DNA from: a virus
DNA length: 64,000 bases
Virus record (IMG/VR): IMGVR_UViG_3300044641_010328
Coordinates: 26,979-90,978 of that record
Strand: one strand, 5' to 3'
The notes beneath the pieces were generated by a model. It had not been told where the DNA came from. It saw only the letters and a list, made by a program, of their open reading frames with translations, and did not search any database. The translations under genes and the position numbers were made by a program. This document shows, one piece after another, positions 5,214 through 38,178 of this stretch (the first letter of the stretch is position 1; each line of letters starts with the position of its first letter).

Positions 5214-5222
5214 GGAAGAAAT

Positions 5223-6444: not shown

Positions 6445-6794
6445 TGTGCCATCACCACGAAGAGTGCGTCATCAAAGATGTTGTCACAGATCCTCGCAAT
6501 GTCAAGATCAAGCTGCGTAATGTCTTCAAGAAAGCTTGTGCGTGTCTCAACGATGACCACGTTTGATTCAATCCCGATCTTGATTGCGTGATTTCTAGTG
6601 TCAACGTCCTTTAAGACCTCAGATACAAAGTACCTCTGTTGACCAGGATCGTTAAATCTGTAGGCTCTTGCAAGTCGCCTCGGATTCTGAAGCTGTGCCC
6701 ATTCTGATTTATCAATTTTTACTGGCAAATCAGGCGCGTCAATAGAGTCTTGAACTGATCCTCTTAGCGACTCATTTAGAAAGTAGAAGCTCAT
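6441..6794 (-). CDS. pterin-4-alpha-carbinolamine dehydratase (PCD/DCoH)-like protein, divergent
   Basis: W..L.R.Y.F, NH (canonical HH), T.T...IT.LD..IA..CD pattern. Confidence 0.6.
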   Translation of the reverse strand: MSFYFLNESLRGSVQDSIDAPDLPVKIDKSEWAQLQNPRRLARAYRFNDPGQQRYFVSEVLKDVDTRNHAIKIGIESNVVIVETRTSFLEDITQLDLDIARICDNIFDDALFVVMAQ

Positions 6795-11033: not shown

Positions 11034-11297
11034 CTAGAGTCCCTCGTAGTGTTTGAAGTCCTTCTGCGTGAGGACTATCTCGTTTCCGTCGCCGCTGTGC
11101 GCAATTATGCTAATCTTTCCCTTCAGTATGCGAACATCATCGACTGTGTACGTGAGGCCTGACTTCTTGTGGATGATCTTAAAACCGGGTGTGATTAGAA
11201 TCTTTTGGTTCTTTCCCTTTCCGACAGATACTTTCAGTGCTTCCTGAATGTATCTCTTCATCATATCCTGGATGTCATTTCCTGTGATTGTTCTCAT
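11034..11297 (-). CDS. hypothetical protein
   Basis: 87 aa ORF; ATAAATA motif upstream. Confidence 0.7.
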   Translation of the reverse strand: MRTITGNDIQDMMKRYIQEALKVSVGKGKNQKILITPGFKIIHKKSGLTYTVDDVRILKGKISIIAHSGDGNEIVLTQKDFKHYEGL

Positions 11298-11763
11298 CAG
11301 CTGAATCCGCCATTATGTTATTTATCTTCCTTACACGAATTCCTGCCACATTAAGCAGCCCTATGCCACTAGAATCTCTATATTCATCTCTGTAGACGAC
11401 TTCTGAGATTCCTGCGTTGATTATTGCCTTTGCACACATCTTGCAGGGACTCATGCTAATATACATTATCTTCTTCTTCGGGTTGTTATAGTCAAGCTTA
11501 ATAAGAGCATTAACCTCAGCATGAATGAACCCAGACTCTCCTGGATCTGATGATTCACGAGTGTTTGGTCCGCCTGCGTGATCACCGTTATATCCTAGAG
11601 CAAGAAGCTGCGTGTTATCGCTTGTGACTATTATTGAAGCAACCTTGTGAACTGGATCATTTGACCTCTTCTCTATTGTTCCAATGACCTCAATCCAGAT
11701 TTGGTCCCAGGATGGTCGATGCTGGTAGGTGTGTCTGAGATCATCTAGAAAATCACTTGCCAT
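11275..11763 (-). CDS. dCMP deaminase
   Basis: GYNG, HAEVNA and SPCKMC zinc motifs. Confidence 0.92.
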   Translation of the reverse strand: MASDFLDDLRHTYQHRPSWDQIWIEVIGTIEKRSNDPVHKVASIIVTSDNTQLLALGYNGDHAGGPNTRESSDPGESGFIHAEVNALIKLDYNNPKKKIMYISMSPCKMCAKAIINAGISEVVYRDEYRDSSGIGLLNVAGIRVRKINNIMADSADENNHRK

Positions 11764-12604
11764 TGGCTTCTACCTTGCTATCAAAGATTGTCTCAATATT
11801 TGTGTGTGCAGGCAAAGCAAAGCCTGCAGCCTTGCGGTGACCGCCTCCTCCAAACCTCTTTGCAATTTCGCTTACATCGGAGTCTTCGTGATGTGCTCTC
11901 AGACTTACCTTTACCTGCTGCGTATCGTGATCATAGTACCAGATTACCGCGAAGTCGCACTTAGGAGAAAGTGCAGCACCAATCTCGGACATCCAGTGCG
12001 GAGAATTGACAACAAGAACATCCTTACCTCCCATCTTTCTAGGAGCAGCCTGCTTCGCGATCTTGGAGATCACGGTCTTCGAGTATGCGAGAATGTAGGC
12101 GCCGCGCTCCTGCGCACTGTCAACCGCCGAATCGTCGAGGTACTTGTCAAACTCCTCGAAGTCATACGGTACCATGTCAAATGCAGCGGAAAACTCCTTG
12201 CTGTACGGAATTTCCCAACGCCAAAGGTCTCGGTCCTCAATGAACTTAATGAGGCGCGGTGCTTCCTTGCCGGGATGGAAGAACTTCCAAGCAAGCATTG
12301 CTCCGCTGTGGTTCATGTCGAACCGAGTGCAAGTGACATCATGGAGCTCAACAACAGCAGACTTGTGGTGATCGATAATAAGAAGGTTCTTGGCTTCCTT
12401 CATCAGTCGTTTTGTTGTCCCGTTGTCATAGGAGAAGTCGAGAACAACGACATTCTTTCCAGAGACATCTGGAGGTTGCTCTCCGTGCTTTGCTGCGTGA
12501 TATTCAGCTCTATCTCCTAGCAGCTTCCAGGCTGAATATGCTGCACCAAATCCATCAGTGCAATTTGCATGGTAGATCACCAGATCGACGCTACCCGGAT
12601 CCAT
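11753..12604 (-). CDS. DHH/DHHA1 family phosphoesterase
   Basis: YH..C.DG, VLDF, IDHH and GGGGH..AAGF motifs; start placed at the ATG overlapping the TK stop (track start 12640). Confidence 0.9.
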   Translation of the reverse strand: MDPGSVDLVIYHANCTDGFGAAYSAWKLLGDRAEYHAAKHGEQPPDVSGKNVVVLDFSYDNGTTKRLMKEAKNLLIIDHHKSAVVELHDVTCTRFDMNHSGAMLAWKFFHPGKEAPRLIKFIEDRDLWRWEIPYSKEFSAAFDMVPYDFEEFDKYLDDSAVDSAQERGAYILAYSKTVISKIAKQAAPRKMGGKDVLVVNSPHWMSEIGAALSPKCDFAVIWYYDHDTQQVKVSLRAHHEDSDVSEIAKRFGGGGHRKAAGFALPAHTNIETIFDSKVEANGK

Positions 12605-13161
12605 CAGAAATCCTGTACTCGATTGTGGTGATTCCAGCACCTTGGTGCGTATAGCTCAGATCCTCCCACAGCTATCTCCTCTAGGTTTTCAACCTTTCGA
12701 TCTGTGAAATATGCATCTGCTCCGCATGTCGTACAAACTGCAGAGCACTTCTCAACGTGTGTTGCCCAGGGTAGTATCTCCTTGATCTCAGGAAATACAT
12801 TGCACGAGGCAGACATCTCAATAGAGGCAACCACGACTGTGAACCCTGTCCTGTACAGAGAGATGAGCGCATCAGCAACGCCATCAATCATGAATGCTTC
12901 ATCAACTGCAATTACATCGGGTCGTGTCTCTTGTGCAGTCACAAATCTAAGAATATCCTCGCCATTTGATACATTTATTGCAGGAATCTTTCCGCCGTTG
13001 TGCGTGCAGATCTCGCTCTCTGTGTACCTGTCGTCAAGACGGGGCTTGAATGCGAGAATCTTTAAACCCTTGTACCTAAATCTATCGACAAGCGCGATGA
13101 GTCGCGTTGTCTTTGAACCCATCATTGGGCCTGTAAAGACATGAAAACTTGGGTTGATCAT
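12604..13161 (-). CDS. tdk: thymidine kinase
   Basis: GPMMGSKTT, VDEAF, C..C and GG..Y.P.C motifs; start set at the ATGA overlap with the epimerase. Confidence 0.92.
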   Translation of the reverse strand: MINPSFHVFTGPMMGSKTTRLIALVDRFRYKGLKILAFKPRLDDRYTESEICTHNGGKIPAINVSNGEDILRFVTAQETRPDVIAVDEAFMIDGVADALISLYRTGFTVVVASIEMSASCNVFPEIKEILPWATHVEKCSAVCTTCGADAYFTDRKVENLEEIAVGGSELYAPRCWNHHNRVQDF

Positions 13162-14153
13162 TTGAGCTTCCACCATTGAAGAGTCCTCTCTAGTCCATCC
13201 CAAAATGTGACCTTAGGTACATATCCAAAGTCACGTTGAGCAGCTCCATAATCACCTAGCGTGTGCATAACGTCTCCTTGTCGCCAGGGAGCATTAACAA
13301 CCTCAATATTCTTGAACTCACTCATAAGATGCTCAAGAATCTCCTTGTTTGATGTGCGCTGGCCACAGCAAACATTATACCTCTCACCCGTAAACTTTTT
13401 AAGTGAAAACGCTGCAAGCACGTTTGCATCGACGACGTTGTCAACGTAACAAAGATCTCTAGACTGTGTCCCGTCTCCGTCAGACCTCAAGGGCGTTCCA
13501 GCCGATATTGCATTGCACCATGCTGAAACCGCTGTCGAATAGGGTGAATCACCCATCTGTCCCGGTCCAAATACGTTAAAATACCGCAGAAGGACAACAT
13601 CGAGATCGTATAGCCTGCTGAATAGTGCTGAAAAGTCCTCTAGGCATGACTTCTGTAGTGCATAAGGAGACTTTGGACTCTTTGGTTCAGATTCAGACGT
13701 TGGCATGACGTCAGCGCCTCCGTACACTGAGGAGGAGGATGCAGCAACGACTCTTCGTACGTTTCCGACGCACGCCTTGATTAAGATGACATACTTCATA
13801 AGATTTTCATCAGTTGTCTCAACTGGGTGCTCAACAGAGTAAGACACGCGTGGGACGGCTGCCTGGTGAAAAACGACGTCATATTTCTTCTGATGGATCC
13901 TATCAAGCACAACAGGCGACGCAAAGTCATCCTCTATCACCCAGACCTGACTCGGATTTCTGCTATCAATCTGTGACTCGTAGATTGACACAAGATTTCC
14001 AATGAATGTCTTGACATCAAGTCCAGAAAAATTATCCAGACTTCCATTCACCATATTGTCAACCACGTCTACTGTGTGCCCATCAGCAACTAGACGCTTT
14101 ACGAGGTTTGAGCCAATGAATCCGGCTCCTCCCGTCACTAGAACATTTGCCAT
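13158..14153 (-). CDS. NAD-dependent NDP-sugar epimerase/dehydratase (extended SDR)
   Basis: TGGAGFIG, HQAA, ASSSSVYG, YxxxK (YALQK) and LRYFNVFGP motifs. Confidence 0.92.
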   Translation of the reverse strand: MANVLVTGGAGFIGSNLVKRLVADGHTVDVVDNMVNGSLDNFSGLDVKTFIGNLVSIYESQIDSRNPSQVWVIEDDFASPVVLDRIHQKKYDVVFHQAAVPRVSYSVEHPVETTDENLMKYVILIKACVGNVRRVVAASSSSVYGGADVMPTSESEPKSPKSPYALQKSCLEDFSALFSRLYDLDVVLLRYFNVFGPGQMGDSPYSTAVSAWCNAISAGTPLRSDGDGTQSRDLCYVDNVVDANVLAAFSLKKFTGERYNVCCGQRTSNKEILEHLMSEFKNIEVVNAPWRQGDVMHTLGDYGAAQRDFGYVPKVTFWDGLERTLQWWKLK

Positions 14154-14186: not shown

Positions 14187-15059
14187 CTAAGGAACAATGT
14201 GTGCACAATTTAGGCACACTTTGACTCGAATATCTCTAGATTCAAGACCAATCAAATTCTGAGCCTTGAAACCAATGTGAATCAGCGCATCAAGATCTAT
14301 CTTCAGATTTTTTGGCACGTTGGTTGATCTGCACACAATGTCAAGGACATCATGCTCTGGTCTATGCATAAATCGAACGTATGATATGCAGCTTGAATTT
14401 GCTGTTACAAACCTACGGGATCCTGCTCCCTGACCCGACTCCATCTCTTTTATGATTCTGTCCATAAGATCATCATTTATCTGCCCGTAATATTCCTCTT
14501 CACCTGGCACTGAGAGTGCACCTGGTCCGAGGTTGTCAGACTGAGATGCAATCACCTCAAACTTCAAATCAAGAGATTCATTTCTCCCTGTGGCAGACAG
14601 CGCACTCTCAACATAGTTTGTCATCTTTTCTGTGCTTACAAACTCTCTGCTATGAACAATGTCGCGAACCGCCTCGGGATCTGGAATTCCCTTGCATGTA
14701 ATCACAGAAGGATGGTCTCTCAGCGCCAGTGATTGTGTGTTGAATGCCTCCCACGTGGTCCGTAGTGAACCAAGGTCGTGCATCTCATCGCCTCTGGCAG
14801 CAAACCGCGCTGTAACTGTGCTCCATTCGGGTGCAAGAAAGACGACAACATTATTCAAATCATCGAGAAACCTGTGAAGCTCGCCGGACTCGTGGCTGTT
14901 ATCACGGCCAAAGATCTTTGGATACACAGCACGACTGATGTGACCCCGATCTCGAATATCATACCTGAAGTTTGTAGACCTGTGAAGTTGTCCGTAGAAA
15001 GTTGACTTGCCCGAGAGATCACAGCCCTCAAGAACAATCTGCCTTGTTGGTAGCCTCAT
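14187..15059 (-). CDS. dNMP (thymidylate)-kinase / thymidylate-synthase-like fusion, putative dCMP-modifying enzyme
   Basis: N-terminal EGCDLSGKST P-loop plus DR motif. C-terminal SRR..SC..F..RSTN....D..AHI matches the order of TS active-site motifs. Confidence 0.75.
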   Translation of the reverse strand: MRLPTRQIVLEGCDLSGKSTFYGQLHRSTNFRYDIRDRGHISRAVYPKIFGRDNSHESGELHRFLDDLNNVVVFLAPEWSTVTARFAARGDEMHDLGSLRTTWEAFNTQSLALRDHPSVITCKGIPDPEAVRDIVHSREFVSTEKMTNYVESALSATGRNESLDLKFEVIASQSDNLGPGALSVPGEEEYYGQINDDLMDRIIKEMESGQGAGSRRFVTANSSCISYVRFMHRPEHDVLDIVCRSTNVPKNLKIDLDALIHIGFKAQNLIGLESRDIRVKVCLNCAHIVP

Positions 15060-18000
15060 ACCTGAATCTTCCTCATCTTGTTATTGTTCGTGGAGAATCC
15101 CCAGTTCGGATCCTTGCTGACCTCTGCGATGTAGATCTCGTAGTGGTTAAGTGGCATCTCGCCCCAGATCCGGAGATTGACCGTCTGCATCTCATTATCG
15201 CACACCTGTGCCCGAATGAAACCTTTACCATTCTTGGTCTTCTTTACATTGAAGTCCTTCACCAGGAACCAGCAGATCCCCTTCTCATTGTCGCCAACCT
15301 CAGTGATCGGACCAACCTGTGCCTTCTTGATCTTGGCGATGATGTCCTCGGGGAACATCAGGTCCTCACGAGAGGTCGAGGTGAGATCGAAGTACATCTT
15401 CAGCTTCTCAGATCGAGTCCAATCCGGAAGATTCTCGTAGTTCTCAAACAGCTTCCAGAAGGTGACCTCAGGCTGCCGACCTTCCTTGATCAGCTTCTTC
15501 ATCTCGGTCTTGGTGTATCCGAACCGACCGCGCCTGAGGATGTCGTAGTTCTTTTCCTCAGTCAGGGTCGCCAAGAGCTGGCGGTGATTTGTCACCTTGC
15601 CGGACTTGAAGTCCTCCAGCGATCGAAGCGCCTCGACGCTGCAGAGCGAGGTGAGTGTGGTCTTGTTCACCTTTGAGTGCCTCCAGGCGCCGTCCTCAGT
15701 GTACAGCATGGACTCGATCGAGATGTAGGGGCGGTTGTCCATGATCTCGGCAACAGCCGTTTCGCCTACTCCCTTGATGGAGGACAGCGGCGGAACGAAG
15801 CCCTGCAGTTCGTGGCTGTACATCCAGACAAGACCCGAGCTATTGATGTCTGGTGGGTGGATCTTGAATCCCTGCTCCTTGATCTCAGTTGCAACCTTCG
15901 CAAGGCCTTCGGGATTAGAGTTCTCGGACTGGAGGCAGGTGGCAAGCCATTCCTCCTCGTAGTGCTTGTGAAGCCAGGCAGCGTAGTAGGAATCGACAGC
16001 ATACGATACGGAGTGAGACTTGTTGAAGCCATATGCAGAGAATGCCTCGATCGTCTCGTAGAGCTCTGTCGCATCCTTGACTGACATGCCGTTCAGGTTC
16101 ACCGCACCATCAACAAACCGCTTGCGAAGGTCCTCGCGCTCCTTGGCCTTCTTCTCATTCATGTCCAGAGACTTCTTGACCAGAGTCTTACGCATCTGAT
16201 CAGATTCACCGGGATTGAAGCCAGCAAGCTTCTGTGCCAGGAGCATGAACTGCTCCTGGTAGACGACGAATCCGTGTGTCGGCCCGAGGACGTCCTTCAG
16301 GATTGGATGCTTATAGGTTGCAAGCCCCTTGTTCTTGACCTCGACATACTTCTTGTGGACACCGGCAGCGAGTGGACCAGGACGATAGATCGCGGTGATG
16401 GCGGACAGGTCCTCGATCGAGGTGGGCTTCGCCTCGAGGCAGAACTTTCGAGCACCGCTGTTTGTGAACTGGAAGACCTGTGTGAATCGCCCCTCGTGAT
16501 AGACGTGCTTCCAGACGTCCTGGTCATCCATCTCGTTGTATCGAATGTTTAGATTCTTGTCGAAGAAGTCCTTGACCTGTGCGAAAGTCGGATCCTTGAT
16601 GCCATGCCGTGTCTGGAGGACCATTCGAATGCAGTCCTCAACCATCTTCAGAAGAGAGAGACCGAGGAAGTCGAACTTGAGGAAGCCGTTCTCCTCGAGA
16701 TGCCGGAAGTTCATACCTTCAGACCAGGGTGTCTGGATCTCACCGCGGACTGAGATGACCGGCATGTGATCCTCAAGCTTTGGGCAGATGAGGACGCCGC
16801 CTGCATGCCGGCCAATCGATCGTGTTTCCATGAAGAGAGACTGGACCTGCTCACAGAGCTCCGGATACTTCTCCATGAAGATCTTGTACTTTTCAGAGTA
16901 CTTCATGCAGTCAGCGTGAGACAGGACGTAGGTGCTCTTTTCCTCGTGGTCACCTAGTGCCCTGTGCATGACATCGTCCTGCAGCGGACCAGTGACCTCG
17001 TTCACCTCCTCGAACGGAATACCATGGAACTTTGCGATGTCCTTAATCAGGGACTTCAGCTTCAAGGTATTGAAGTTCGAGACCGGAACAACAGAGGCCT
17101 CTCCGAATAGCTTGCGTGCCTCATCGATTAGAACATCACGATCACCGACGTCAGTGTCGATGTCAGGCCACGCGACCTTGTGGCGACCGAGGAACCGCTC
17201 CCACAGGAGGTCGTACTTGATCGGATCAACCGATGTGATGCCGAGGACGTAGTTGACCAGAGATCCTGCACCCGATCCGCGACCAGGACCGATCAGCGTT
17301 CGATGCTGTGCACGGTCGAAGACGAAATAGAGAGTGAGGAAGTAGTTCTCGAACTTGAGATACTTGATGTCATCAAGCTCCATCTTCAGTCGTTCGACGT
17401 ATTCAGGTTTCGTGTGAAGACCGAGCTCAACAAGACCCTTCTTGCACATGTCAAGGAGCTGGTTGAAGGCAGTCTGCTCGGGCTTGTTAAAGCTCGGAAG
17501 CTTTGCAGAGGAATCGAAGGAGATCTCCTCACACTTTTCCCAGGCGATGTCATGAGTCCGCTCGATCGACTCCTTGACCAGAAGCTCAGTCCCCTTGTAG
17601 AAGTCGTGCTGGTCCTTGTGAGCAAGGTACTCATCCCACATCTGCTGTGCGTTCTTAGGATACAGCTCGCACTTGAGCTCCTCGAAGGCAGGCAGCGTCT
17701 GCTTCTGCATGTCATCAGAGCGGCCGCCCATACGGCCAAGCTTCTTGTAGAGCTCACGCGCCTGCCAGACGTTCGGGCTGTAGTAGTGAGAATCTGCGGT
17801 CGCGATCGTCTTGATGCCGGTGCGCTTCGACAGGTCAATCAGGTGCTTGTTGGTCGTGTGCTGGATGTCAAGCTTGTTGAACTGGAGCTCGAGGAAGAAG
17901 TTGTCGATTCCAACCGCATCGACAAATCGATCCGTGTGATTTTGGAGCTCACGCTGGATCTGCTCATGAGGCTTCTTCAGCGCCTCACCGCGAATCGAGG

Positions 18001-18613
18001 TCGAAGCAAGAAGGCCTCCGACACATGCAGTCGAGACCACAAGCCCTTCACCATGCTGCTTGAGCATGTTGTAATCGATGCGAGGAAACTTGTAGTAGCC
18101 CTCGACGTAGGACCGCTTGACAAGGTTGAACAGGTTCTTGAGCCCAGTTCGATTCTTGGCAAAGACGACCAGATGATACCGGCGCTTCCATTCATCTGCA
18201 TCATCAGAGTCAACAGACTTGGTCTCCTCCTCGTCCTCGACAACAAGGCCTCCGGTCACCTCCTCCTCAGCGAGGATGTCAATCTTCTCAGGCTTGCCTT
18301 CCTCGTTCTTTGCGCGTTTTGCCTCGAAGTGAGCAGCGCGCTTCTTTTCCCAATCAAGAAGAGATGGGACAAAGTAGAACTCGACGCCATAAAGCTGCCG
18401 GTACTTACGTCCCTTACCCTTCATTTTCCTAGAATAGGTGTGAGCGTGAGCGAGGCCGTTGCCGCTACCGTGGTCAGTCAGCGCCCATGCGTCCATGCCA
18501 TTATGGAGGACCCAGTCGATGTGCTTATCAGGATAGCCAAGTCCGTCATTGACGCTGAAACCTGAGTGCGCATGCAAACCGACAAAACGATTCGGTGGTT
18601 CGATGATGCTCAT
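15056..18613 (-). CDS. dnaE: DNA polymerase III alpha subunit (DnaE) with PHP domain
   Basis: LHAHS, TDHG, GPGRGSGAGS, PDIDTD, HAGGV, KFDFLGL, YRPGP and GFNKSH motifs. Confidence 0.97.
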   Translation of the reverse strand: MSIIEPPNRFVGLHAHSGFSVNDGLGYPDKHIDWVLHNGMDAWALTDHGSGNGLAHAHTYSRKMKGKGRKYRQLYGVEFYFVPSLLDWEKKRAAHFEAKRAKNEEGKPEKIDILAEEEVTGGLVVEDEEETKSVDSDDADEWKRRYHLVVFAKNRTGLKNLFNLVKRSYVEGYYKFPRIDYNMLKQHGEGLVVSTACVGGLLASTSIRGEALKKPHEQIQRELQNHTDRFVDAVGIDNFFLELQFNKLDIQHTTNKHLIDLSKRTGIKTIATADSHYYSPNVWQARELYKKLGRMGGRSDDMQKQTLPAFEELKCELYPKNAQQMWDEYLAHKDQHDFYKGTELLVKESIERTHDIAWEKCEEISFDSSAKLPSFNKPEQTAFNQLLDMCKKGLVELGLHTKPEYVERLKMELDDIKYLKFENYFLTLYFVFDRAQHRTLIGPGRGSGAGSLVNYVLGITSVDPIKYDLLWERFLGRHKVAWPDIDTDVGDRDVLIDEARKLFGEASVVPVSNFNTLKLKSLIKDIAKFHGIPFEEVNEVTGPLQDDVMHRALGDHEEKSTYVLSHADCMKYSEKYKIFMEKYPELCEQVQSLFMETRSIGRHAGGVLICPKLEDHMPVISVRGEIQTPWSEGMNFRHLEENGFLKFDFLGLSLLKMVEDCIRMVLQTRHGIKDPTFAQVKDFFDKNLNIRYNEMDDQDVWKHVYHEGRFTQVFQFTNSGARKFCLEAKPTSIEDLSAITAIYRPGPLAAGVHKKYVEVKNKGLATYKHPILKDVLGPTHGFVVYQEQFMLLAQKLAGFNPGESDQMRKTLVKKSLDMNEKKAKEREDLRKRFVDGAVNLNGMSVKDATELYETIEAFSAYGFNKSHSVSYAVDSYYAAWLHKHYEEEWLATCLQSENSNPEGLAKVATEIKEQGFKIHPPDINSSGLVWMYSHELQGFVPPLSSIKGVGETAVAEIMDNRPYISIESMLYTEDGAWRHSKVNKTTLTSLCSVEALRSLEDFKSGKVTNHRQLLATLTEEKNYDILRRGRFGYTKTEMKKLIKEGRQPEVTFWKLFENYENLPDWTRSEKLKMYFDLTSTSREDLMFPEDIIAKIKKAQVGPITEVGDNEKGICWFLVKDFNVKKTKNGKGFIRAQVCDNEMQTVNLRIWGEMPLNHYEIYIAEVSKDPNWGFSTNNNKMRKIQV

Positions 18614-19893: not shown

Positions 19894-20328
19894 TTATTCG
19901 ATGTGTCCGTAGTAGGGCTCGAAGAGGGGCTTCCCTTCTGCAATGGATCGCTGGAGATAGTCGCGCAGATCCTCATAGGAGGTTGTAACCTTAACGCCAG
20001 ATTGAGCTAGCATCAAATTGAAGTTGCCTGTGAGACCCTGCGCAAAGTAGACAATTGGAACGCCAGCGTTGTATGCCACACCTGCCTCAAAAATTGTGCC
20101 CATGTCCTTATCGCGCGTGTTGCAGAGAACAAAGTCAGCTGTTCGAATGTGATCAACATTTCCTTTGAATGTGTCCTTCTGAACCTGGAGAGAAGCTGTT
20201 GGGGGACAGATAAAGATCTTGCGCGGCGATGCAACATCAAGACCAAGATCTCCTAGCAAATTTTCCAGAGCCTCGACTTCCTCGAGCGCCTTAGGTGTGA
20301 ACCAGCCAGATGCGAGATATACCTTCAT
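19894..20328 (-). CDS. nucleoside 2'-deoxyribosyltransferase / NMP N-glycosidase family
   Basis: KVYLAS..F, I..AD.V, D.GT..E.G.A and NLM motifs; start chosen at the ATG after GAGG. Confidence 0.85.
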   Translation of the reverse strand: MKVYLASGWFTPKALEEVEALENLLGDLGLDVASPRKIFICPPTASLQVQKDTFKGNVDHIRTADFVLCNTRDKDMGTIFEAGVAYNAGVPIVYFAQGLTGNFNLMLAQSGVKVTTSYEDLRDYLQRSIAEGKPLFEPYYGHIE

Positions 20329-20369
20329 TTTGAACCTCACATAAACAATAGTGGCGCACATCGTTGTTT

Positions 20370-26476: not shown

Positions 26477-27427
26477 TTAAAAATCTCTACGAGCCTTGTA
26501 ATTACTCACAATCTCGTCAATCTCTCCTAGAATCTCATTCCAGAGCGTCCGGAAGTGTGGGACACCGCCATCTGTTCCGTTCATGTCATCTCGTGTGGCC
26601 TGGTAGATCGTGTCATTCGGGTGGTAGGTGAGGTGCTTCTCGCTGTCCTCGTCAGGCCAGTAGAGGTTGGTACCTGTTCCATTGCGGAATGTCTTGATGT
26701 AGTGCCATGCAGGCTCGCGAAGATTGATCGCAACATGAGCCTCGGGGAAGACGCGGAGGATCTCACGTGCCATGAGTGCCGCAAGCATGTTATCCTCCTC
26801 AGGCTGGATCTGCTTGTCCTGACGCTGCTTAATGAACATGAAAGCATCGCGGATGTTCATGCGCATGTAGTAGAACGTCTCGAGGCACTTCGGGAGGATA
26901 TGACGAGCGTCCATGAGAGAGATCTTCTTGGAGTCGACCATGTCAACATAGAGCGCCTTTGCATCCTCTACGTGATTCTTCCAGCGCTCATAGAACTCAG
27001 GGCTATTCTGGATCGAGCCTGGAACTAGGCTGCGCTCGTGAGAGAGCCAGCGATCACCTGTGCACTGCGCCGCAAAAGATCCGGCACGATGACGAATGAG
27101 ATGAGTTACTGTCTGAGTATCGATTCCACCCACAAGGAAGGTGAGACCGATTAGCTCCATTGCTGCAGGAAGGGCACGACCCGCAAAGACGTCCTCCATG
27201 GTCTTTGAGAGATCTGCTTCAGAAGCCTCAGCATAGGGAACATGCTTATCAGCCCACGTGGACTTAACGAAACAATAAACTGCCTGTCGGATCGTCTTTG
27301 GATCAGGGCTGTCGACAAGCTCGAGCTTAAGCGCATCGAGGCTATTTACGAACTTGGTTGTAGGCCGCTCGTCGAAACGAATTGCCATGGGAAGGTTAAT
27401 GGGCTGTAGATCTAGATTTTGTGGCAT
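26477..27427 (-). CDS. divergent ThyX-fold flavoprotein (RHRx7C)
   Basis: LTF, THLIRHRAGSFAAQC, DARHILP and N.RD..F..QR motifs; lacks the GHxxxFE His and SxRY. Confidence 0.85.
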   Translation of the reverse strand: MPQNLDLQPINLPMAIRFDERPTTKFVNSLDALKLELVDSPDPKTIRQAVYCFVKSTWADKHVPYAEASEADLSKTMEDVFAGRALPAAMELIGLTFLVGGIDTQTVTHLIRHRAGSFAAQCTGDRWLSHERSLVPGSIQNSPEFYERWKNHVEDAKALYVDMVDSKKISLMDARHILPKCLETFYYMRMNIRDAFMFIKQRQDKQIQPEEDNMLAALMAREILRVFPEAHVAINLREPAWHYIKTFRNGTGTNLYWPDEDSEKHLTYHPNDTIYQATRDDMNGTDGGVPHFRTLWNEILGEIDEIVSNYKARRDF

Positions 27428-27436: not shown

Positions 27437-28354
27437 CTATCGAAGATTATCGATGATTTTGGTCAAGTTTTCAACTAGAATCACGCCTTCTTGCCGCTGG
27501 AGTGATTTATTGTAAGGCTGAATTGGGCTAAATGTCCGAAGTCCATGAGAGGCAAACTCTGCTGCATGCTTTGGCGAGTCATCTACACAGAAGGCAACGT
27601 GTCCTGCAAACTTTGACTGGATGATCCAGAGGAACTTCTCTCCGCTGAAGGCTACATCATCAAAGTAGAGACCCGAGCTGTGAAGCCATCGTGCTGTGTC
27701 AAAGAGGCAGAGAGGATTGTCTGCAGGGCGTGCTGTCAGGATCTGGACCCAATACCCAAGTCGCTGTAGCTCATGCGTGAATTCGGCTGCATCACTGACA
27801 GCCGGAATGTCGCGAAGCTTGCGCTCTGCTATGAACTCCTTGAAGAGGCGCTCTGTGTTATGCCCTAGATCTTGAGCAGCTGATGCAGCATAGTACTCTG
27901 GACAGTCATACGAAATCACTGCTCCCTTCGTCTCAGCAAGCCACTCAAAGAACGAGCGTCTGAACTCTGCAAGCACATCATCCATGTCAAGGATTGCTAC
28001 TGGACGACCATCCCAAGACTTCTTAGACAGGTTATGCCTGAAGTGAAGGTAAGCATCCTTGTCCTCGAAGGCATCAACAAGCTCTTTCTCATTGATGTCC
28101 CAGACATTCATGATTGCCATCAGATATCTGATCACATCAATGCTCTCATACAAGATCTTTGTCCGGTCTGGCATCTTGCGATCCATTCGGTGATCTTTGA
28201 AATTGATTGATGATACAAGATCTGAGATCTCAGAATGCAATTCAAGAGCAAATGATTTTGTCATCTGCTCTTTCTCTACGTCTGTGAATGTCTTGCTATC
28301 GAAGAAAAGATTAGAGAATGCACGCTGACGATGCAGCATCTCTTTTAGGGTCAC
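27437..28354 (-). CDS. all-alpha dCTPase/dUTPase-like domain fused to a HAD 5'(3')-nucleotidase
   Basis: N-terminal EISDL..FKDH..ESIDV; C-terminal DMDDV, LTAR, K, VDDSP. Confidence 0.8.
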   Translation of the reverse strand: MTLKEMLHRQRAFSNLFFDSKTFTDVEKEQMTKSFALELHSEISDLVSSINFKDHRMDRKMPDRTKILYESIDVIRYLMAIMNVWDINEKELVDAFEDKDAYLHFRHNLSKKSWDGRPVAILDMDDVLAEFRRSFFEWLAETKGAVISYDCPEYYAASAAQDLGHNTERLFKEFIAERKLRDIPAVSDAAEFTHELQRLGYWVQILTARPADNPLCLFDTARWLHSSGLYFDDVAFSGEKFLWIIQSKFAGHVAFCVDDSPKHAAEFASHGLRTFSPIQPYNKSLQRQEGVILVENLTKIIDNLR

Positions 28355-28363: not shown

Positions 28364-28735
28364 CTAGTATTTACTCTTAATCCTATCGTGAATGATCCTA
28401 TCTTTATTAACGTACGCCTCAAAAAGCTCATCAGGCGTAACTCCCATAATAATCAGAAGAGAGAGGAAGTAGTTAAAAGAGTCAACCATCTCCTCCTTGA
28501 ATGCGGCTCGATCAAAATCGCGAATCTCTGTCTGTCGATGAGACTTTGCGTTCTTTAGCTCTTGCACTGCCTCAAAGACCTCTTCGACACCACGAAGTGC
28601 AAGATCTCTGAGATGTTGCTGTGTAGCCTTGTTTGTCAGATCGACAGGCATCTCTGGATAGACATCTGGGACCTGCTTCTGCAAGGCTGTCATGAAGTCC
28701 TTGCGAAGTTCAAACATTTGATCGAGCTTGTCCAA
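28364..28735 (-). CDS. all-alpha dNTP pyrophosphatase (T4 gp56 dCTPase/dUTPase-like)
   Basis: EEVFEA, EEMVD..YF and GVTPDELFEAY..K....R...Y motifs; TTG start. Confidence 0.8.
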   Translation of the reverse strand: MDKLDQMFELRKDFMTALQKQVPDVYPEMPVDLTNKATQQHLRDLALRGVEEVFEAVQELKNAKSHRQTEIRDFDRAAFKEEMVDSFNYFLSLLIIMGVTPDELFEAYVNKDRIIHDRIKSKY

Positions 28736-28736: not shown

Positions 28737-28976
28737 TTAGTCCTCTAGAGACTCAGGTGGAGACATTGCGGCAATTGCAGCAATCATTCGGTTAAGGCTC
28801 TCATCAAATTTGCTGAGATAGGCGGGATCAGGAGAAAGCTGCTCTCGCTCATCGACAACCAGGCGAATCGTCCTGAGGTTGTCAACGATGTCAGTGCCTG
28901 ATAGAATCGCGATCTGAAGAAGTCGTGCAATCTGTGAGATTGTGTCATCTGATAGTCCATAAGTCGTTGTTGCCAT
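28737..28976 (-). CDS. hypothetical protein
   Basis: 79 aa ORF with AGGA RBS. Confidence 0.75.
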   Translation of the reverse strand: MATTTYGLSDDTISQIARLLQIAILSGTDIVDNLRTIRLVVDEREQLSPDPAYLSKFDESLNRMIAAIAAMSPPESLED

Positions 28977-28985: not shown

Positions 28986-29789
28986 TTATTTCTGAATTTC
29001 TGGGATCCAAAAGGTAGTCCGTCCGTCCTTCGTCGTCTCTCTCTTTACCTCTCTACCTTCTGGATCCTTGGGCTGATTGTAGACTGCAAAGCGGCGACTG
29101 TAATCTCCCTTTTGTCCATCAAAACCTGAAAATGTGTAGATGGTGGCGCCACCAGTCTCATATGACTTCCTAATAACATTCTTAATCACAGAATTGAGTG
29201 TTTTCAACTCATCTTCAGATAAGGTGTTAGTTTCTCTATGGGGACTGAGTCTGCTAAAATACAAGCATTCAGACTTTAGATAGTTTCCTACTCCGCTAAT
29301 TACAGACTGATCCATAAGAACTTCTGCTAGCGTTCTATTCTTCTTCTTAATAGATCTAATAAAGACAGCGTCTGATACATCTTCAGCAAGCATATCTGGA
29401 CCTAAAGTCTTCAGCTTCGCTGCCAGCGAATCTTTTTTGTCAATTAGTTTTAATGTGCCGAAGTTTCTCATATCATTGAAGTAGATCTCTCCTCCGTCGT
29501 CCAAATCAAACTGAATCCTGCTGTGCTTTCTCTCAACAGCTGACCAGCTTCCAGTCATTCCTAAAGTGTTGAAAATATGCATCCCATTGTCAAGACTGAT
29601 GTAGATGAATTTTCCCTTACAGCCAACTTCAGAAACTTTGACATTCAGAAAATGATTCAGACTTTCCCATCCTTCAGGATTCTTCTTTGTGTAGCGTCCT
29701 GATAGAATTCTCATATCAGAAATCTTCTTGTTCAAGATTCTTTCACGAATCCCGTCAGATACAACTTTTACCTCTGGGCCCTCTGGCAC
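28986..29789 (-). CDS. mutM: Fpg/Nei DNA glycosylase (zincless-finger type)
   Basis: PEGPE N-terminus, KGK, LGMTG, D.R.FG, LMDQ..ISGVGNY and GRTTFW.P motifs; no Cys zinc finger. Confidence 0.92.
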   Translation of the reverse strand: MPEGPEVKVVSDGIRERILNKKISDMRILSGRYTKKNPEGWESLNHFLNVKVSEVGCKGKFIYISLDNGMHIFNTLGMTGSWSAVERKHSRIQFDLDDGGEIYFNDMRNFGTLKLIDKKDSLAAKLKTLGPDMLAEDVSDAVFIRSIKKKNRTLAEVLMDQSVISGVGNYLKSECLYFSRLSPHRETNTLSEDELKTLNSVIKNVIRKSYETGGATIYTFSGFDGQKGDYSRRFAVYNQPKDPEGREVKRETTKDGRTTFWIPEIQK

Positions 29790-29803: not shown

Positions 29804-30226
29804 TTATTGACTATTTACCCATCGCCAGTAATTCTTCAGCGCACCGTCCTTGGGCTCTGGAATCTTTGACCACGCATGATTACAGAAGATCTTGTATGCT
29901 GCAGCAGCGTAATCTCCGATCCCATACAGATCTTTCGGATCTCTCTTATCCCACGTCAGATAGTCCTGTGACATCTTGACAAGAGTCTTGCTTCTCCGAT
30001 CTCCGAGACCAAGATCCTTGATTAGATCTCTGACTTCTTCAGTGCTTGCATTCGCAGCGTCCTTTGCAGTTGGCCACCGATCAAAGAACTGCCACATAAG
30101 TGGTTCAGCTTCGACACGCTTTGTCAGATTGCAGAAAATACAAACAACAAAAACACGCCAAGGATCATCCTGGACGTGTTCTTGAATGAGGTTGTAGGGT
30201 GAACGCGGTGCGTGCATACCATACAA
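29804..30226 (-). CDS. MBD4-like HhH G:T/G:U mismatch glycosylase
   Basis: SPYNLIQE..DPW..CIF.N.T, LGL..R, LYGIGDYA and P.D..L..Y..W match the MBD4 glycosylase domain. Confidence 0.8.
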   Translation of the reverse strand: MYGMHAPRSPYNLIQEHVQDDPWRVFVVCIFCNLTKRVEAEPLMWQFFDRWPTAKDAANASTEEVRDLIKDLGLGDRRSKTLVKMSQDYLTWDKRDPKDLYGIGDYAAAAYKIFCNHAWSKIPEPKDGALKNYWRWVNSQ

Positions 30227-30840: not shown

Positions 30841-31473
30841 TCAATAGCCAAATGCTTCAATTGTGTCTCGGAATGGGTTTCCTGGAATTTCTTTGACCTG
30901 ACTTAGCATGTCCTCTGCAAGCCAGCAAATCTCTCTCTGTGCATCTGGCTTCAATCGAAGCCCAAGAAAATGCGAGAATGATCGCCAGTTGAACATAACG
31001 TCCATTGTGATCTGATTTCCATATGGAAGGTAGAAACGTGCAGATTCCTTTGCTCGCTTCCTGCTCATTCCGCCATCAACAAGGCGCCTGAGTGTGTCAT
31101 GATATCGCATGATTGCGTCTTCCATGAAGGCAATGTACCGAGACTGCTCTTCCAGGGGCCAATCTTTGGGAAGATAGTACTTGTCATCCTTCAGCTCCTT
31201 GTACCTCGCTGACTCAGCATTGATTGAGACGCCAATTCTATGCTTTAGTAGCTGAATGTGCGTTGCACAGTCGACAGTTGCGAGAAAGTGCAAAGAGCTT
31301 TTCTCAAATGGCGTCTCGTGACCATTTTCAGCCAGCATCCTTAGAAGCGCCGGAATTCTTTCATGCTTTTCAGGTGTAAGATCTCGGCTTGTGCTTGTCC
31401 ACGCTGATAGCGCATGAACATCATCGCCGCCGTACCACCCGACTAGCTCAACCTTGTTTTCTTGAAATGACAC
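30841..31473 (-). CDS. thyX: FAD-dependent thymidylate synthase ThyX (canonical type)
   Basis: GHETPFE, KHR..ESARY, ARFYLP and N.RS..HF..LR...AQ.EI motifs. Confidence 0.92.
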   Translation of the reverse strand: MSFQENKVELVGWYGGDDVHALSAWTSTSRDLTPEKHERIPALLRMLAENGHETPFEKSSLHFLATVDCATHIQLLKHRIGVSINAESARYKELKDDKYYLPKDWPLEEQSRYIAFMEDAIMRYHDTLRRLVDGGMSRKRAKESARFYLPYGNQITMDVMFNWRSFSHFLGLRLKPDAQREICWLAEDMLSQVKEIPGNPFRDTIEAFGY

Positions 31474-31678
31474 TTCTAATCCTCTCTCTAATGTTTTTAT
31501 CCCAGATTAGCTCAAAGATCCATTGCAAAAACGTGAGTGACAAACCTGACACAAGCACCATGGTTGAAGAAACCAAAATGTCGCCGGTAAACAGATAAGT
31601 CACCCATGTTCCAAATAGCATTGAGAATGCACGCCACACAGCTGTCTTGATGAGGAGCTCAATACTATTTGAATCCAT
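31448..31678 (-). CDS. DUF2061-like small membrane protein
   Basis: KT..WR......Y..TG.....E..W pattern with two hydrophobic helices; start at the ATG overlapping the GS stop. Confidence 0.65.
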   Translation of the reverse strand: MDSNSIELLIKTAVWRAFSMLFGTWVTYLFTGDILVSSTMVLVSGLSLTFLQWIFELIWDKNIRERIRSVISRKQG

Positions 31679-32694
31679 CAAGATGCTTCCAGGAGCAGCC
31701 TTGTCACTGTGTAAGGATCCATGTTGGCACATGGACGTCTATCTTCGAAATATCCGCATCCTGCCTTTGAAACGTGAAGCGGGATTCTAATAGAAGCACC
31801 TCGATCGGAAACACCGCACCTAAATTCCTTGTAAGAGCATGTCTCGTGTTGTCCTGTTAGGCGCTGCTCAATTCCGTGGCCATAATACGGAATATAGTCG
31901 TCATGCAATCGCCGGAGTATGCTTAGAATTCGATCGATCTCTGCCATTCCTCCTTCCTCATCGCGCGTTGCGGCTGTTGACCAGTTTGTGTGAGCGCCTG
32001 CTCCATTGAGCTCGCGAACAGGCTTTGGATCTAGCTTGGCATTTATTCCGTAGTCCTCTCCTATCCGGTAGAGGAGCCACCTTGCAAGCCACAGATGGTC
32101 AGACACGACAACGGGATCACCTGTTCCAATCTGGAACTCCCATTGACCAGGCATAACCTCAGCATTGACACCGCAAATCATGAGCTCAGCATCCATGCAG
32201 GCTTTCATGTGCGCCTCTACGAGATCTCTTCCGCACACCTCGTCAGCGCCTACACCGCAGTAGTAGGGCCCCTGCTGTGGTGGGTAACCTCCCGTAGGCC
32301 ATCCTAGTGGAGTTCCACCTCTAAAAAGTGTATACTCCTGTTCAATTCCGCATAATGGAATCTTTGATCCCTTTCGCTCCATTAGCCTGACCAGGTGATG
32401 TCGTGTGTTAGTTCGATGGGGAGTTCCGTCTGCATTGTAGACTTCACACAGAACTAGAATTGCAGGCCTTTCCTTTGATCGAATTGGATCCTTACAGAAT
32501 GAGACAGGAAATAGAATGCAATCACTCTTGTCACCGGGAGCCTGTCCTGTCGATGATCCATCAAATGTCCACTGTGGAACATCAGATATTGATAGCTTTT
32601 CTCCTGAAAATGGAAAAATCTTGGTCTTGCTTCTTAGCTTGGACGTGGGTGTAGTCCCGTCTATCCAGATGTACTCTGCGATTATGTTTACCAT
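31678..32694 (-). CDS. glnII: glutamine synthetase type II
   Basis: AEYIWIDG, FDGSST, QGPYYCGVG, NAEVMPGQWEFQIG, NGAGAH, RLTG.HET and EDRRP motifs. Confidence 0.95.
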   Translation of the reverse strand: MVNIIAEYIWIDGTTPTSKLRSKTKIFPFSGEKLSISDVPQWTFDGSSTGQAPGDKSDCILFPVSFCKDPIRSKERPAILVLCEVYNADGTPHRTNTRHHLVRLMERKGSKIPLCGIEQEYTLFRGGTPLGWPTGGYPPQQGPYYCGVGADEVCGRDLVEAHMKACMDAELMICGVNAEVMPGQWEFQIGTGDPVVVSDHLWLARWLLYRIGEDYGINAKLDPKPVRELNGAGAHTNWSTAATRDEEGGMAEIDRILSILRRLHDDYIPYYGHGIEQRLTGQHETCSYKEFRCGVSDRGASIRIPLHVSKAGCGYFEDRRPCANMDPYTVTRLLLEAS

Positions 32695-35857: not shown

Positions 35858-37225
35858 CTACTTACCGTTAATCTCTTTCCACTTCTCTTTAAGAAGAGTT
35901 TTCATTGATGTTCCATCTGCCTTAACCACGTCGTTGAGTGACATCTCATCCGCGTTGAGCAGCGTGAACTTTGACATGGAAGTATCTATCTGCATGGGAA
36001 ACAACATTCCGTCACGGCCTGCTCGATTCTTGGCAACAAAGATGCGACCAGTACCGGTTGATTTTTCATTTGGCTTTCGAGAGATGGAAAGAACAACGTC
36101 AGCAACCATCGCTTTGCCATATGCTTCAGACATGTTTTCGAGACCGACGATGTCTGCGTTAGAGGCGTCTCGATTTGCCTGTGATGCAGTCCAGATTGGA
36201 ATGCTCATCTCCATGGACATGTTTCGAAGCTCTTCATAGACAAGCTTTAGCTCATGTCGTAGAGAATCAAAGCTCCTAGATGACTTCATGATATCTGCAT
36301 AGTCAATGATCACAACACTCGGTACAAATCCCTTGAGAAGAAGCTTTTCTATATGATTACGCAGAGTCTGAACTGACGGAGTACCAGTAGGATACTCCTT
36401 AATAATAAGCCTTCCGAGTTGCGTATCCTTGTAGAAGTCAAGCACCTCTTGCTTGCGATCGATCACTTCATTGCTTGGAATGCTGCAGAGGTTAGAATCA
36501 TATCGAAGTCCGACTGCGGACTCTGTGAGCTCAAAGGTGTAATGCACCACATTCTTGCCGACTCGCAAAGCTTCTGCACCCATCTGGACCAGGAAGTGAG
36601 ACTTTCCAACCCCGGTCGGTGCAACGACAACTCCGAGCTCTCCTCTTCCAAGACCACCATTCAGAATGTCAGGCGCATCGATCTGAAGCAATCCAGTCGG
36701 GCATACCTGTCTACGTGTTCTAACAAATCTTGCCTCGATGTCCTCGAAGAAGTCATGTCCGACGGATGCAGGAGTTCCGGCGGCCAGAGCATCTTTCATC
36801 AGCCCGACAACAGAGTCAAGATTATCAGTTGCGATCATCTCAACAGCCTTCTCAAGGGCCTCTTTCATCGCCTGCTTCTTGCAGAAATCAAGAGACTTAT
36901 CCTTGACATACTGCAGATCGCCAATGTTTGGATTGGTTCTGACTCGCTGTAAGAAGTCAATGATCTGATCCCGGAGGATCGTGTCCTTTCCTTCCCGCAG
37001 ATCATCCTTGATGATCGTGACAAGCAAGGGAAGTGTAGGAAAGTCCTTGTACTTCTGGTGATAAGAGAAGTAAGACTTGCAGAGATACTGCAGGTATTTG
37101 AGATCAAAGTACTCGGGAGTCATGATCTCAATCATCTGCATTGCCCAGGATCGATCAGTCAGGAATGCCTGAAAGATCTTTTCCTGAAACTGCTTGCCAT
37201 AGTGGCTAAAAAATGCTTCGCTCAT
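35858..37225 (-). CDS. replicative DnaB-like helicase (T4 gp41-like)
   Basis: APTGVGKS, IKEYPTG, IDYAD, TASQANR and KNR motifs. Confidence 0.93.
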   Translation of the reverse strand: MSEAFFSHYGKQFQEKIFQAFLTDRSWAMQMIEIMTPEYFDLKYLQYLCKSYFSYHQKYKDFPTLPLLVTIIKDDLREGKDTILRDQIIDFLQRVRTNPNIGDLQYVKDKSLDFCKKQAMKEALEKAVEMIATDNLDSVVGLMKDALAAGTPASVGHDFFEDIEARFVRTRRQVCPTGLLQIDAPDILNGGLGRGELGVVVAPTGVGKSHFLVQMGAEALRVGKNVVHYTFELTESAVGLRYDSNLCSIPSNEVIDRKQEVLDFYKDTQLGRLIIKEYPTGTPSVQTLRNHIEKLLLKGFVPSVVIIDYADIMKSSRSFDSLRHELKLVYEELRNMSMEMSIPIWTASQANRDASNADIVGLENMSEAYGKAMVADVVLSISRKPNEKSTGTGRIFVAKNRAGRDGMLFPMQIDTSMSKFTLLNADEMSLNDVVKADGTSMKTLLKEKWKEINGK

Positions 37226-38178
37226 TCGGCACCAATGTGATTCATTGAATAGAACATGTTGTCAATGTCAAAATTTCTAATTCCAATTGATTGTGCTTCC
37301 CGCATGAATCCTATCTTATCACGCCGAGGGGCCCATTTTTCATTCGTAAACTTAATCTTTTCGATCTGTTGCGGAGGTATCGAGGATGAATCAAGGTAGA
37401 CAAGCTTCCAGTTTCGCCTGATTAGATCCTCTGATTCGCAGATCGAGTCAAAGATCTTCACCTTGCCAGTCCTTCGCTGGTCTGACAAAGAGATGAAATC
37501 ATCAACCAGCACATCTCCGGGAGCACCTAGCTCTGGAAATCTCTTTGCCAGTGTCTTGAATCCAACGCCCTGGACGCCAGGAATGTTGTCTGAGTCATCT
37601 CCGCAGACAGACTTTGCGAGTGCAAAGTTATTCGGATGTATGCTAAATTTGGATATCACCTCATCCGTGTCCACGATCTTCTTCCATGTCGGCGAGTAGA
37701 TGATTGAGTTATCACGGATGAGTTGATAGTAATCTTTGTCAGCAGACAAGATGATATGCAGACATTCCGGGTGCATATAGCGACAGATGTACGCAATAAC
37801 GTCGTCTGCTTCACAATCCTGCCCATACATCTGTACGATAGGCAGGTGATTTAGCAGCTTCACTATTGCGACAATCTGGCTATTGCGATCAGACACAGTC
37901 TGAGGAATGTCATCCTCGTAATACCTGTTTAGTTTCTCTGGTCTTCGGTGAGACTTATAGCCTGGATAGAGGGAACGTCTGCTTGCAGATCCTCCGCTTT
38001 CCCAGACGACATAGATCCGCTTGGGTCTAAATCTTGTGCTAAGAGATCGAAGCTCTCCTAAAAACCCGACAACACCACCCAGGTGATTACCGTTCACACC
38101 CATTGCTGGGTGTGCAACGAAGTGACGAGTAAAAAGGTTGAGAGCATCGACCATTAAGATCGACGCCTCTCCTTTCAT
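37222..38178 (-). CDS. 5'-3' exonuclease / flap endonuclease
   Basis: VDALN, YK..R, EADD, SADKDY and GDDSDNIPGV.GVG motifs. Confidence 0.92.
   Translation of the reverse strand: MKGEASILMVDALNLFTRHFVAHPAMGVNGNHLGGVVGFLGELRSLSTRFRPKRIYVVWESGGSASRRSLYPGYKSHRRPEKLNRYYEDDIPQTVSDRNSQIVAIVKLLNHLPIVQMYGQDCEADDVIAYICRYMHPECLHIILSADKDYYQLIRDNSIIYSPTWKKIVDTDEVISKFSIHPNNFALAKSVCGDDSDNIPGVQGVGFKTLAKRFPELGAPGDVLVDDFISLSDQRRTGKVKIFDSICESEDLIRRNWKLVYLDSSSIPPQQIEKIKFTNEKWAPRRDKIGFMREAQSIGIRNFDIDNMFYSMNHIGAE

Follow-up and report, generated by a model that had tools for sequence, protein, structure and literature searches.

What product does a phage obtain from a second, rewired protein of the ThyX fold when it already encodes a canonical flavin-dependent thymidylate synthase (FDTS, ThyX)? 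The question is raised by P0001, the predicted ThyX-like flavoenzyme of 316 aa encoded at 26477..27427 (−) in a 64,000-nucleotide stretch of viral DNA (the window), which is part of the 90,978-base IMG/VR virus record IMGVR_UViG_3300044641_010328. The genes of the window lie nearly all on the minus strand and belong to phage replication, nucleotide metabolism and tail-sheath/baseplate functions. Because related contigs reach up to ~236 kb, the source, a marine phage, was taken to be a jumbo phage. A first-pass annotation had read P0001 as a second ThyX paralog with an altered active site. We found that the superfamily of ThyX (Thy1) includes a large branch restricted to viruses, of which P0001 is a member, and the analysis inclines towards a flavoenzyme that modifies C5 of a pyrimidine deoxynucleoside monophosphate (dNMP) before replication, rather than one devoted to ordinary dTMP supply.

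The assignment of P0001 to the ThyX fold was supported by both profiles and structure. P0001 matched the Pfam Thy1 family (PF02511) with 71.3 bits against a cut-off of 24.8, and the canonical ThyX of the window (30841..31473, (−)) matched it with 118.9 bits. The two copies were separated by the NCBI thyX equivalog TIGR02170, for which the cut-off is 87.9 bits; the canonical copy (P0002) passed at 99.1 bits, whereas P0001 scored 46.8 and four further members of its family scored 26.8–58.8. The AlphaFold 2 model of P0001, for which 66 diverse relatives were given as input, had a mean predicted local distance difference test (pLDDT) value of 95.9, and all its strong matches in the PDB were ThyX or the ThyX paralog PolB. 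TM scores from Foldseek, normalised to the target, were at most 0.77, and VIA-align against ThyX structures gave Z scores of 15–17 with ~200 residues aligned. As model residues ~29–241 aligned with residues 5–219 of Thermotoga maritima ThyX, P0001 carries an N-terminal extension of ~28 aa and a C-terminal extension of ~75 aa, in agreement with the extensions noted in the first-pass annotation, and its C-terminal part contains many residues that are invariant among 22 relatives.

The residues of P0001 were mapped by profile alignment to Mycobacterium tuberculosis ThyX, with the T. maritima numbering verified against the alignment of the canonical copy; the site geometry discussed here derives from these alignments. 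Arg78-His79-Arg80 of T. maritima ThyX is kept as R112-H113-R114, Arg147 as R175, and Arg174, which activates dUMP (PMC8316439), as R202. At the remaining positions His53 is replaced by L86 (followed by P87), Asn85 by A119, Ser88 by C122, Arg90 by G124 and Tyr91 by D125, after which comes a new R126, and the motif runs R112-H113-R114...Q121-C122-T123-G124-D125-R126. Residues 84–91 read RALPAAME and residues 112–125 read RHRAGSFAAQCTGD, as had been reported for this copy, and the canonical copy was likewise confirmed to keep GHETPFE and ESARY. In T. maritima ThyX, the RHR triplet and Arg147 make contact with FAD and with the phosphate of the nucleotide. Tyr91 and Asn85 keep His53 in position, and His53 stacks against the pterin of the folate as well as against the reduced flavin (PMC11940539). 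Ser88, Arg90 and Tyr91 assist the attack on the flavin N5-carbinolamine, and the T. maritima mutants S88A, R90A and Y91A each slow the carbinolamine-consuming step, Y91A by more than 100-fold (PMC8316439). Read in this way, P0001 is predicted to keep the canonical flavin and nucleotide contacts and to have the folate and methylene-transfer residues all replaced, as one set.

The loss of the canonical catalytic residues could in principle mean that P0001 is left over from a thyX duplication and is decaying or no longer catalytic, and the first-pass annotation had named conservation of the substitutions in homologs as the test of such decay. The substitutions were indeed conserved, both in close relatives and in diverse members. 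The string THxIRHR..AQCTGDR was invariant in the 22 relatives (52–89% identity), barring Leu or Ile at x and the near-invariant positions 115, 116 and 119. Among 130 diverse members, on which the motif percentages of the family are based, Leu occupied position 86 in 87% and His in none, position 122 was Cys in 73%, position 124 was Gly or Ala in 86% and position 125 was Asp or Glu in 85%; R112 (99%), R114 (95%), R175 (96%) and R202 (98%) were retained, and H113 varied. The pairwise dN/dS of close relatives against the window gene ranged from 0.03 to 0.07, and the median over 55 pairs was 0.049. In addition, P0001 was the most conserved protein of the region, with a median identity of 89% as compared with 81% for the canonical ThyX and 78.5% for ribonucleotide reductase. 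The low dN/dS (~0.05), the top conservation in the region and the conserved replacement residues together indicated that P0001 is not a product of decay, which we regard as highly improbable also in view of the size of the family.

A word-index search returned 1,179 homologs of P0001, and an exhaustive search yielded 117 clusters at 50% identity with E<1e-10. The atlas clusters of the family were 86–97% viral, and only 3 of 185,579 species-representative genomes carried a member, each time on a contig of a metagenome-assembled genome; the family is almost confined to viruses. Geobacillus phage GR1 was the only cultured carrier found (45.7% identity, a full-length tblastn match among 50,697 phage records), and no near-identical DNA of the window was detected in cultured phages. 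A literature search for a characterised member of the family found none. Longer fused forms of P0001 were sought and none was found, which is weak evidence. A single weak fusion, P0140, joins a GT2 glycosyltransferase to a ThyX-like part, and its locus was not found in IMG/VR; P0144 and P0191 were set aside as a homing-endonuclease insertion and a likely chimera. In a FastTree tree, 118 of the 130 rows labelled ThyX-like fell on one side of the split from canonical ThyX, the label being one given by score that proved imprecise.

The gene neighbourhood of P0001 gave the second line of evidence. Directly upstream, at 27437..28354 (−) and separated by a 9-nt gap, lies a gene for a fusion of a MazG/dUTPase_2-like all-alpha NTP pyrophosphatase with an NT5C-type HAD 5'-deoxynucleotidase (found in 73 of 80 related loci). 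The stop codon of this fusion gene overlaps the ribosome-binding site of P0001, AGGAG, placed 7 nt 5' of the ATG. A further 9 nt upstream is the gene of a small MazG-like nucleotide pyrophosphohydrolase (28364..28735 (−), 77/80 loci), and at the head of the cassette is orf79, a conserved 79-aa ORF without a family match (28737..28976 (−), 73/80). This arrangement agrees with the apparent operon of dNTP pyrophosphatases and a nucleotidase described in the first-pass annotation. By sequence comparison, neither orf79 nor the DUF6378 neighbour of other lineages showed similarity to the other, to the small MazG or to solved structures, and promoter and terminator scans remained at chance level. The gene of a nucleoside 2-deoxyribosyltransferase-like protein (NDT; 19894..20361 (−)) adjoins the P0001 gene downstream in most relatives; in the window a block of structural-looking genes has moved in between. 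Across the 80 loci, chosen at ≥50% identity, the conserved order was orf79, small MazG, MazG-HAD, ThyX-like and NDT, followed beyond a variable stretch by DNA polymerase III alpha, kinase/mini-TS, epimerase, thymidine kinase, DHH and dCMP deaminase. In the window these correspond to a DnaE-type DNA polymerase III alpha (15056..18613 (−)), the replicative polymerase which the cassette adjoins in many lineages, a fusion of a dNMP kinase with a minimal ThyA-fold domain (mini-TS), P0276 (14187..15059 (−)), and, at the downstream side of this conserved nucleotide block, an NAD-dependent sugar-nucleotide epimerase/dehydratase (13158..14153 (−)), a thymidine kinase (TK; 12604..13203 (−)), a DHH phosphoesterase (11753..12640 (−)) and a dCMP deaminase (11275..11763 (−)). 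The kinase-TS fusion mentioned in the first-pass annotation is P0276; the 363-aa gene directly downstream of P0001 (25345-26436), which had been considered for a kinase/TS, was rejected as repeat-rich and structural-looking.

The generality of this neighbourhood was assessed by collapsing ~290 loci from four sub-families to 33 lineages (≤65% identity) and counting the neighbours within four genes of the ThyX-like gene. NDT-like proteins were found in 23 of the 33 lineages, MazG-like proteins in 19 and HD/YfbR-like 5'-deoxynucleotidases in 16, followed by Pol A (10), Pol III alpha (9), DUF6378 (8, mostly at −1), kinase/mini-TS (7) and a stand-alone mini-TS at +1 (5); these counts were in agreement with a Pfam-based tally of the genes within two positions on either side. 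At 14 control phage loci with a canonical-motif ThyX, NDT and HD were absent, MazG occurred three times and DUF6378 once, the control set being small and the hidden Markov models (HMMs) being derived from neighbours of the ThyX-like gene. The association with NDT and 5'-nucleotidases nevertheless looks specific to the ThyX-like gene. Other neighbours were sporadic: a nitroreductase at −1 in L141 and GR1; TylF-type O-methyltransferases at +1 in L086/L088 (8912-9484) and at −2 in L215 (1674-2444); an FkbM methyltransferase at −1 in L089 (7208-7990); GT1 glycosyltransferases near the gene in L151 and in the GR1-like locus L141, with a glycosyltransferase annotated in the GR1 record too; NAD-dependent sugar epimerases at −1 in L091 and L094; and dCMP deaminase at +1 in two to three lineages. 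The TylF/FkbM O-methyltransferases adjoin the ThyX-like gene in three unrelated lineages of small phages. In lineage L167, a 348-aa protein (4388-5434) encoded two genes 5' of the ThyX-like gene fuses a thymidylate-kinase-like P-loop domain to an NDT domain.

The position of P0001 among enzymes that break down and rebuild dNTPs and dNMPs suggested that it probably makes an unusual DNA pyrimidine. In the pathway that we propose, MazG-type pyrophosphatases would turn a dNTP into the dNMP substrate, and the HAD or HD 5'-nucleotidases together with the NDT-like enzyme would dispose of the canonical nucleotide or recycle it. A pyrimidine dNMP would then be converted to a modified dNMP by the ThyX-like enzyme, re-phosphorylated by a dedicated kinase and incorporated by the phage polymerase. 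On balance, we consider it somewhat probable that P0001 acts in this way at C5 and before replication, in place of an ordinary role in dTMP supply. This is partly in line with the first-pass annotation, in which another pyrimidine nucleotide or redox chemistry had been suggested.

The chemistry of such a step can be named tentatively at best. One possibility is an O2-dependent C5 hydroxylation by the reduced flavin, with Cys122 acting as the C6 nucleophile or as an acid. What makes it attractive is the loss of residues on the folate side together with the new Cys, the flavin reductases among the neighbours and the O-methyltransferases, glycosyltransferases and epimerases encoded nearby; it would give a hydroxyl handle for later O-glycosylation or O-methylation. 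An equally tentative possibility is that C5 of dCMP or dUMP is hydroxymethylated or methylated, the one-carbon donor being handled in an altered way; formaldehyde can be used directly by ThyX (PMC8316439). Some other flavin chemistry is a doubtful third option. A 'reverse hydride' oxidase that converts dTMP to hydroxymethyl-dUMP (hmdUMP) was also considered and was set aside as energetically implausible, a judgement by inference only. As to the base, retention of the Arg174 equivalent and the presence of dCMP deaminases among the neighbours may favour uracil, and the new Asp125 and the Asp-type mini-TS partner may favour cytosine.

Two families encountered upstream of the cassette and one at a distance from it touch on this chemistry. 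A Fpg/Nei-family DNA glycosylase is encoded directly upstream of the cassette (28986..29789 (−), 45/80 related loci) and a short HhH-GPD glycosylase of 140 aa further upstream (29804..30226 (−), 37/80). The Fpg/Nei and HhH-GPD families remove oxidised or ring-saturated pyrimidines, which may matter if the phage makes an oxidised pyrimidine. A 117-aa ORF at 6441-6794 (−) matched Pterin_4a (pterin-4a-carbinolamine dehydratase) with 33 bits, above the cut-off, which is unusual for a phage, and adjoins a 790-aa protein without an assigned function. A pterin hydroxylase was considered on the basis of this match and was set aside, as the ORF is ~20 kb off and outside the cassette.

Several observations weigh against a role in base modification, for which the main rival is a more conventional reading, in which P0001 is a divergent but genuine flavin-dependent thymidylate synthase (TS) that uses Cys122, Asp125 and Arg126 in place of Ser88, Tyr91 and Arg90, binds folate without the stacking His and is one of two TS genes in the jumbo phages. 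Co-occurrence with canonical enzymes was examined in five jumbo contigs (200–236 kb) and in 24 small-phage records from diverse lineages, 16 of which were ≥90% complete. Canonical ThyX and the ThyX-like gene were found together in four of the five jumbo contigs, and full-length ThyA in none of them. Among the complete small phages, a canonical ThyX accompanied the ThyX-like gene in two (G026 and G027) and a full-length ThyA in one (G015), as it did in the incomplete record G013; in 13 of the 16 the ThyX-like gene was the sole Thy1 protein and no full-length ThyA was present. The complete GR1 genome likewise contained neither a second Thy1 nor a ThyA. Therefore, the description as a 'second paralog' held for the source phage and four of the five jumbo contigs but not for most small phages, and it is not a general trait of the family. 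Being the sole TS-like gene in these 13 phages keeps an ordinary dTMP-synthase role possible, and its repeated pairing with either type of canonical TS elsewhere argues against redundancy.

The individual residues are also less telling than the set. The missing folate His, reported in the first-pass annotation, was borne out by Leu86 and by the absence of His throughout the family, but it is not diagnostic alone, since the ThyX forms of PB1-like phages, Onyinye and Pluto, annotated as TS, also lack the His53 equivalent while retaining the Ser and Arg. The cultured phages Onyinye, Pluto and goonie carry a different long ThyX form, which retains the Ser and Arg, and were for this reason rejected as members of the family. 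Further long phage ThyX groups (300–420 aa; L098-L123 and L295-L297) carry the motifs ..MQHGGRDNDW or QES.R[FY]; the QES.R[FY] group lacks the His53 equivalent and includes the PB1-like Pseudomonas phages, and no characterised representative of these groups appears evident. The Ser-to-Cys exchange, found in 73% of members, is by itself similarly weak evidence: Cys122 is missing from the other 27%, and the largest lineage (104 loci) reads AQVHGDR, without it. The T. maritima S88C mutant is reportedly active. Its crystal structure (PDB 3g4c) indicates that Cys at the Ser88 position is structurally tolerated.

Further points on the same side come from the tree and the neighbours. The split from canonical ThyX was only moderately supported (SH-like 80), and the glycosyltransferase, methyltransferase and epimerase links were sporadic (~8-9 of 33 lineages) and counted without comparison to controls. 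The dUTPase-like, dCMP deaminase and kinase neighbours suit ordinary dTMP synthesis too, the first two by feeding dUMP. Moreover, the source phage keeps a canonical ThyX, TK and dCMP deaminase, and thymine is not obviously excluded from its DNA. Together with the 95–99% conservation of the Arg residues of RHR and of the Arg147 and Arg174 equivalents, these points make a divergent dTMP synthase an explanation to be taken seriously. It nevertheless appears rather unlikely to us, as all five folate/flavin-stacking and carbinolamine residues are changed together at positions where single exchanges at three (S88A, R90A and Y91A) already slow the carbinolamine step in T. maritima (PMC8316439). P0001 also falls below the thyX equivalog cut-off, is more conserved than the canonical copy of the same phage and has relatives in a number of independent lineages that share their genome with a canonical ThyX or a full-length ThyA. 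Furthermore, the 5'-deoxynucleotidases and NDT encoded nearby, which canonical phage ThyX genes lack as neighbours, would oppose dTMP supply.

The mini-TS domain raised yet another explanation, in which P0001 mainly serves a partner: the mini-TS would bind dCMP and attack C6 with its Cys, and the ThyX-like protein would supply or position reduced flavin or a flavin-bound one-carbon or oxygen species, so that the two form a two-component pyrimidine C5 hydroxylase or transferase. The kinase part of P0276 resembled dNMP kinases in fold (Z 12.5). Its mini-TS part of 150 aa gave tied matches to MilA (Z 12.2), the flavin-dependent dCMP hydroxylase AfhB (Z 11.9) and ThyA (~Z 11), and it lacks the N-terminal folate-binding half of ThyA while keeping RR, the catalytic Cys and the R-S pair. 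Fused and stand-alone mini-TS share an invariant Arg, the catalytic Cys, the R-S pair, a His and an Asp, the last at the position of Escherichia coli ThyA Asn177, where it is a cytosine-type residue; Asp at this position switches TS-family enzymes to dCMP (PMC13326640). In the jumbo clade the mini-TS forms one protein with the kinase, and in five lineages, GR1 among them, it is encoded immediately 3' of the ThyX-like gene, always with the Cys and the cytosine-type Asp. In GR1 (OK896991, L001), the segment 11286-13424 encodes a nitroreductase/dihydropteridine reductase, the ThyX-like protein and a 151-aa mini-ThyA annotated as 'hypothetical protein', with the stop of the ThyX-like gene overlapping the start of the mini-TS gene; just upstream of this string are genes for a glycosyltransferase, an HD protein, NDT and a P-loop kinase. 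The nitroreductase upstream in the GR1-like phages would suit such a two-component system. However, only ~10 of 32 lineages showed a mini-TS in the flanking sequence retrieved, a count made with an HMM that may be insensitive, and P0276 evolves fast, with 28% identity in a close relative whose ThyX-like protein is 89% identical. The ThyX-like protein also retains the arginines of a nucleotide site of its own. We therefore hold a role mainly as partner of the mini-TS to be unlikely, and a modification of the dNMP by the ThyX-like protein itself remains the preferred reading.

How P0001 relates to known systems was then considered. With canonical ThyX/FDTS (EC 2.1.1.148; T. maritima TM0449 and M. 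tuberculosis ThyX), it shares the fold, the Thy1 match, RHR and the Arg147 and Arg174 equivalents, and it differs from them in the five replaced residues, the new Arg126, both extensions, the TIGR02170 score, the restriction to viruses and the gene neighbourhood. PolB is a neofunctionalised ThyX paralog of polyoxin biosynthesis that methylates UMP/dUMP alongside a normal TS (PMC5954106), and its structures (PDB 4p5a and 4p5b) matched P0001 with Z 16.1. Like P0001, it is a paralog of ThyX, but PolB keeps ES-A-RY (SFNEESARY) where P0001 has FAAQCTGDR. A PolB-type enzyme would combine a retained ThyX motif with extra loops for the ribose 2'-OH, a type that P0001 with its different motif does not fit. 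PolB still transfers a folate-derived methyl group and belongs to cellular secondary metabolism, whereas P0001 is a phage protein.

RB69 gp48, DLP3 gp80 and HY126 AfhB are ThyA-fold, flavin/O2-dependent dCMP 5-hydroxylases that feed DNA glycosylation and work with a dCTPase, a dNMP kinase and glycosyltransferases (PMC13326640). These enzymes (PDB 9iqu and 9iqc) give a precedent for a thymidylate-synthase scaffold that has lost folate chemistry for flavin-based C5 hydroxylation. Their ThyA fold is unrelated to the ThyX fold of P0001, and their features (ThyA fold, Cys and Asn177-to-Asp) were found in the mini-TS of P0276, not in P0001. The paper on 5-hydroxycytosine was for this reason set aside as a description of the P0001 family, since it concerns homologs of ThyA and not of ThyX.

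The general logic of the cassette is that of pre-replicative base replacement, as in T4, in which the dCTPase gp56, the dCMP hydroxymethylase gp42 and the dNMP kinase gp1 form a module, and in SPO1, which contains hydroxymethyluracil (hmU). A pyrophosphatase, a C5-modifying enzyme and a dedicated kinase occur in both, and dCMP deaminase and nucleotidases clear the canonical nucleotide. The modifying enzyme of T4 and SPO1 is a full-length ThyA homolog; here its place would be taken by a ThyX-fold protein with a near-constant NDT-like companion.

A few other features of the window were recorded. A truncated glutamine-synthetase-like protein of 338 aa (31678-32694 (−)), which comprises Gln-synt_N and the first half of the catalytic domain, is encoded between ClpP and the canonical ThyX and occurs in 10 of the 80 related loci; it could act as an amide ligase on a nucleotide or on a DNA modification. 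Two separate 5'-3' exonuclease (FEN-like) genes are present at 1761-2561 (−) and 37222-38178 (−). For a 232-aa protein (10334-11032 (−)), the match to Fe/Mn superoxide dismutase was confined to the C-terminal domain of the latter, and in addition to the DnaE-type polymerase a 377-aa ORF (42273-43406 (−)) gave a weak, partial DNA_pol_A match of 26 bits, below the cut-off.

In its most specific and still speculative form, the proposal is that the ThyX-like protein, alone or with the mini-ThyA and an external flavin reductase, is a flavin/O2-dependent dNMP C5-hydroxylase or another folate-independent C5 transferase. As such it would start an undescribed pathway to O-glycosylated or O-methylated 5-hydroxy-pyrimidines, widespread in marine jumbo phages and many smaller uncultured phages and present in GR1. 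The cultured Geobacillus phage GR1 is a possible test system for the question of the ThyX-like protein and the mini-TS, and either outcome is testable in it. Should P0001 prove to be an ordinary TS, ThyX would be able to work without His53, Ser88, Arg90 and Tyr91, a result of interest for the disputed mechanism of FDTS and for the design of inhibitors. If P0001 yields a product different from dTMP, it would be the first enzyme of the ThyX fold to be recruited for phage DNA base modification and the second, independent thymidylate-synthase scaffold to leave folate chemistry. The modification pathway would then be carried by more than 1,000 uncultured phage proteins, many of them from marine samples, and the modification, if true, would bear on restriction and CRISPR evasion, on sequencing bias in viromes and on new nucleotide chemistry.

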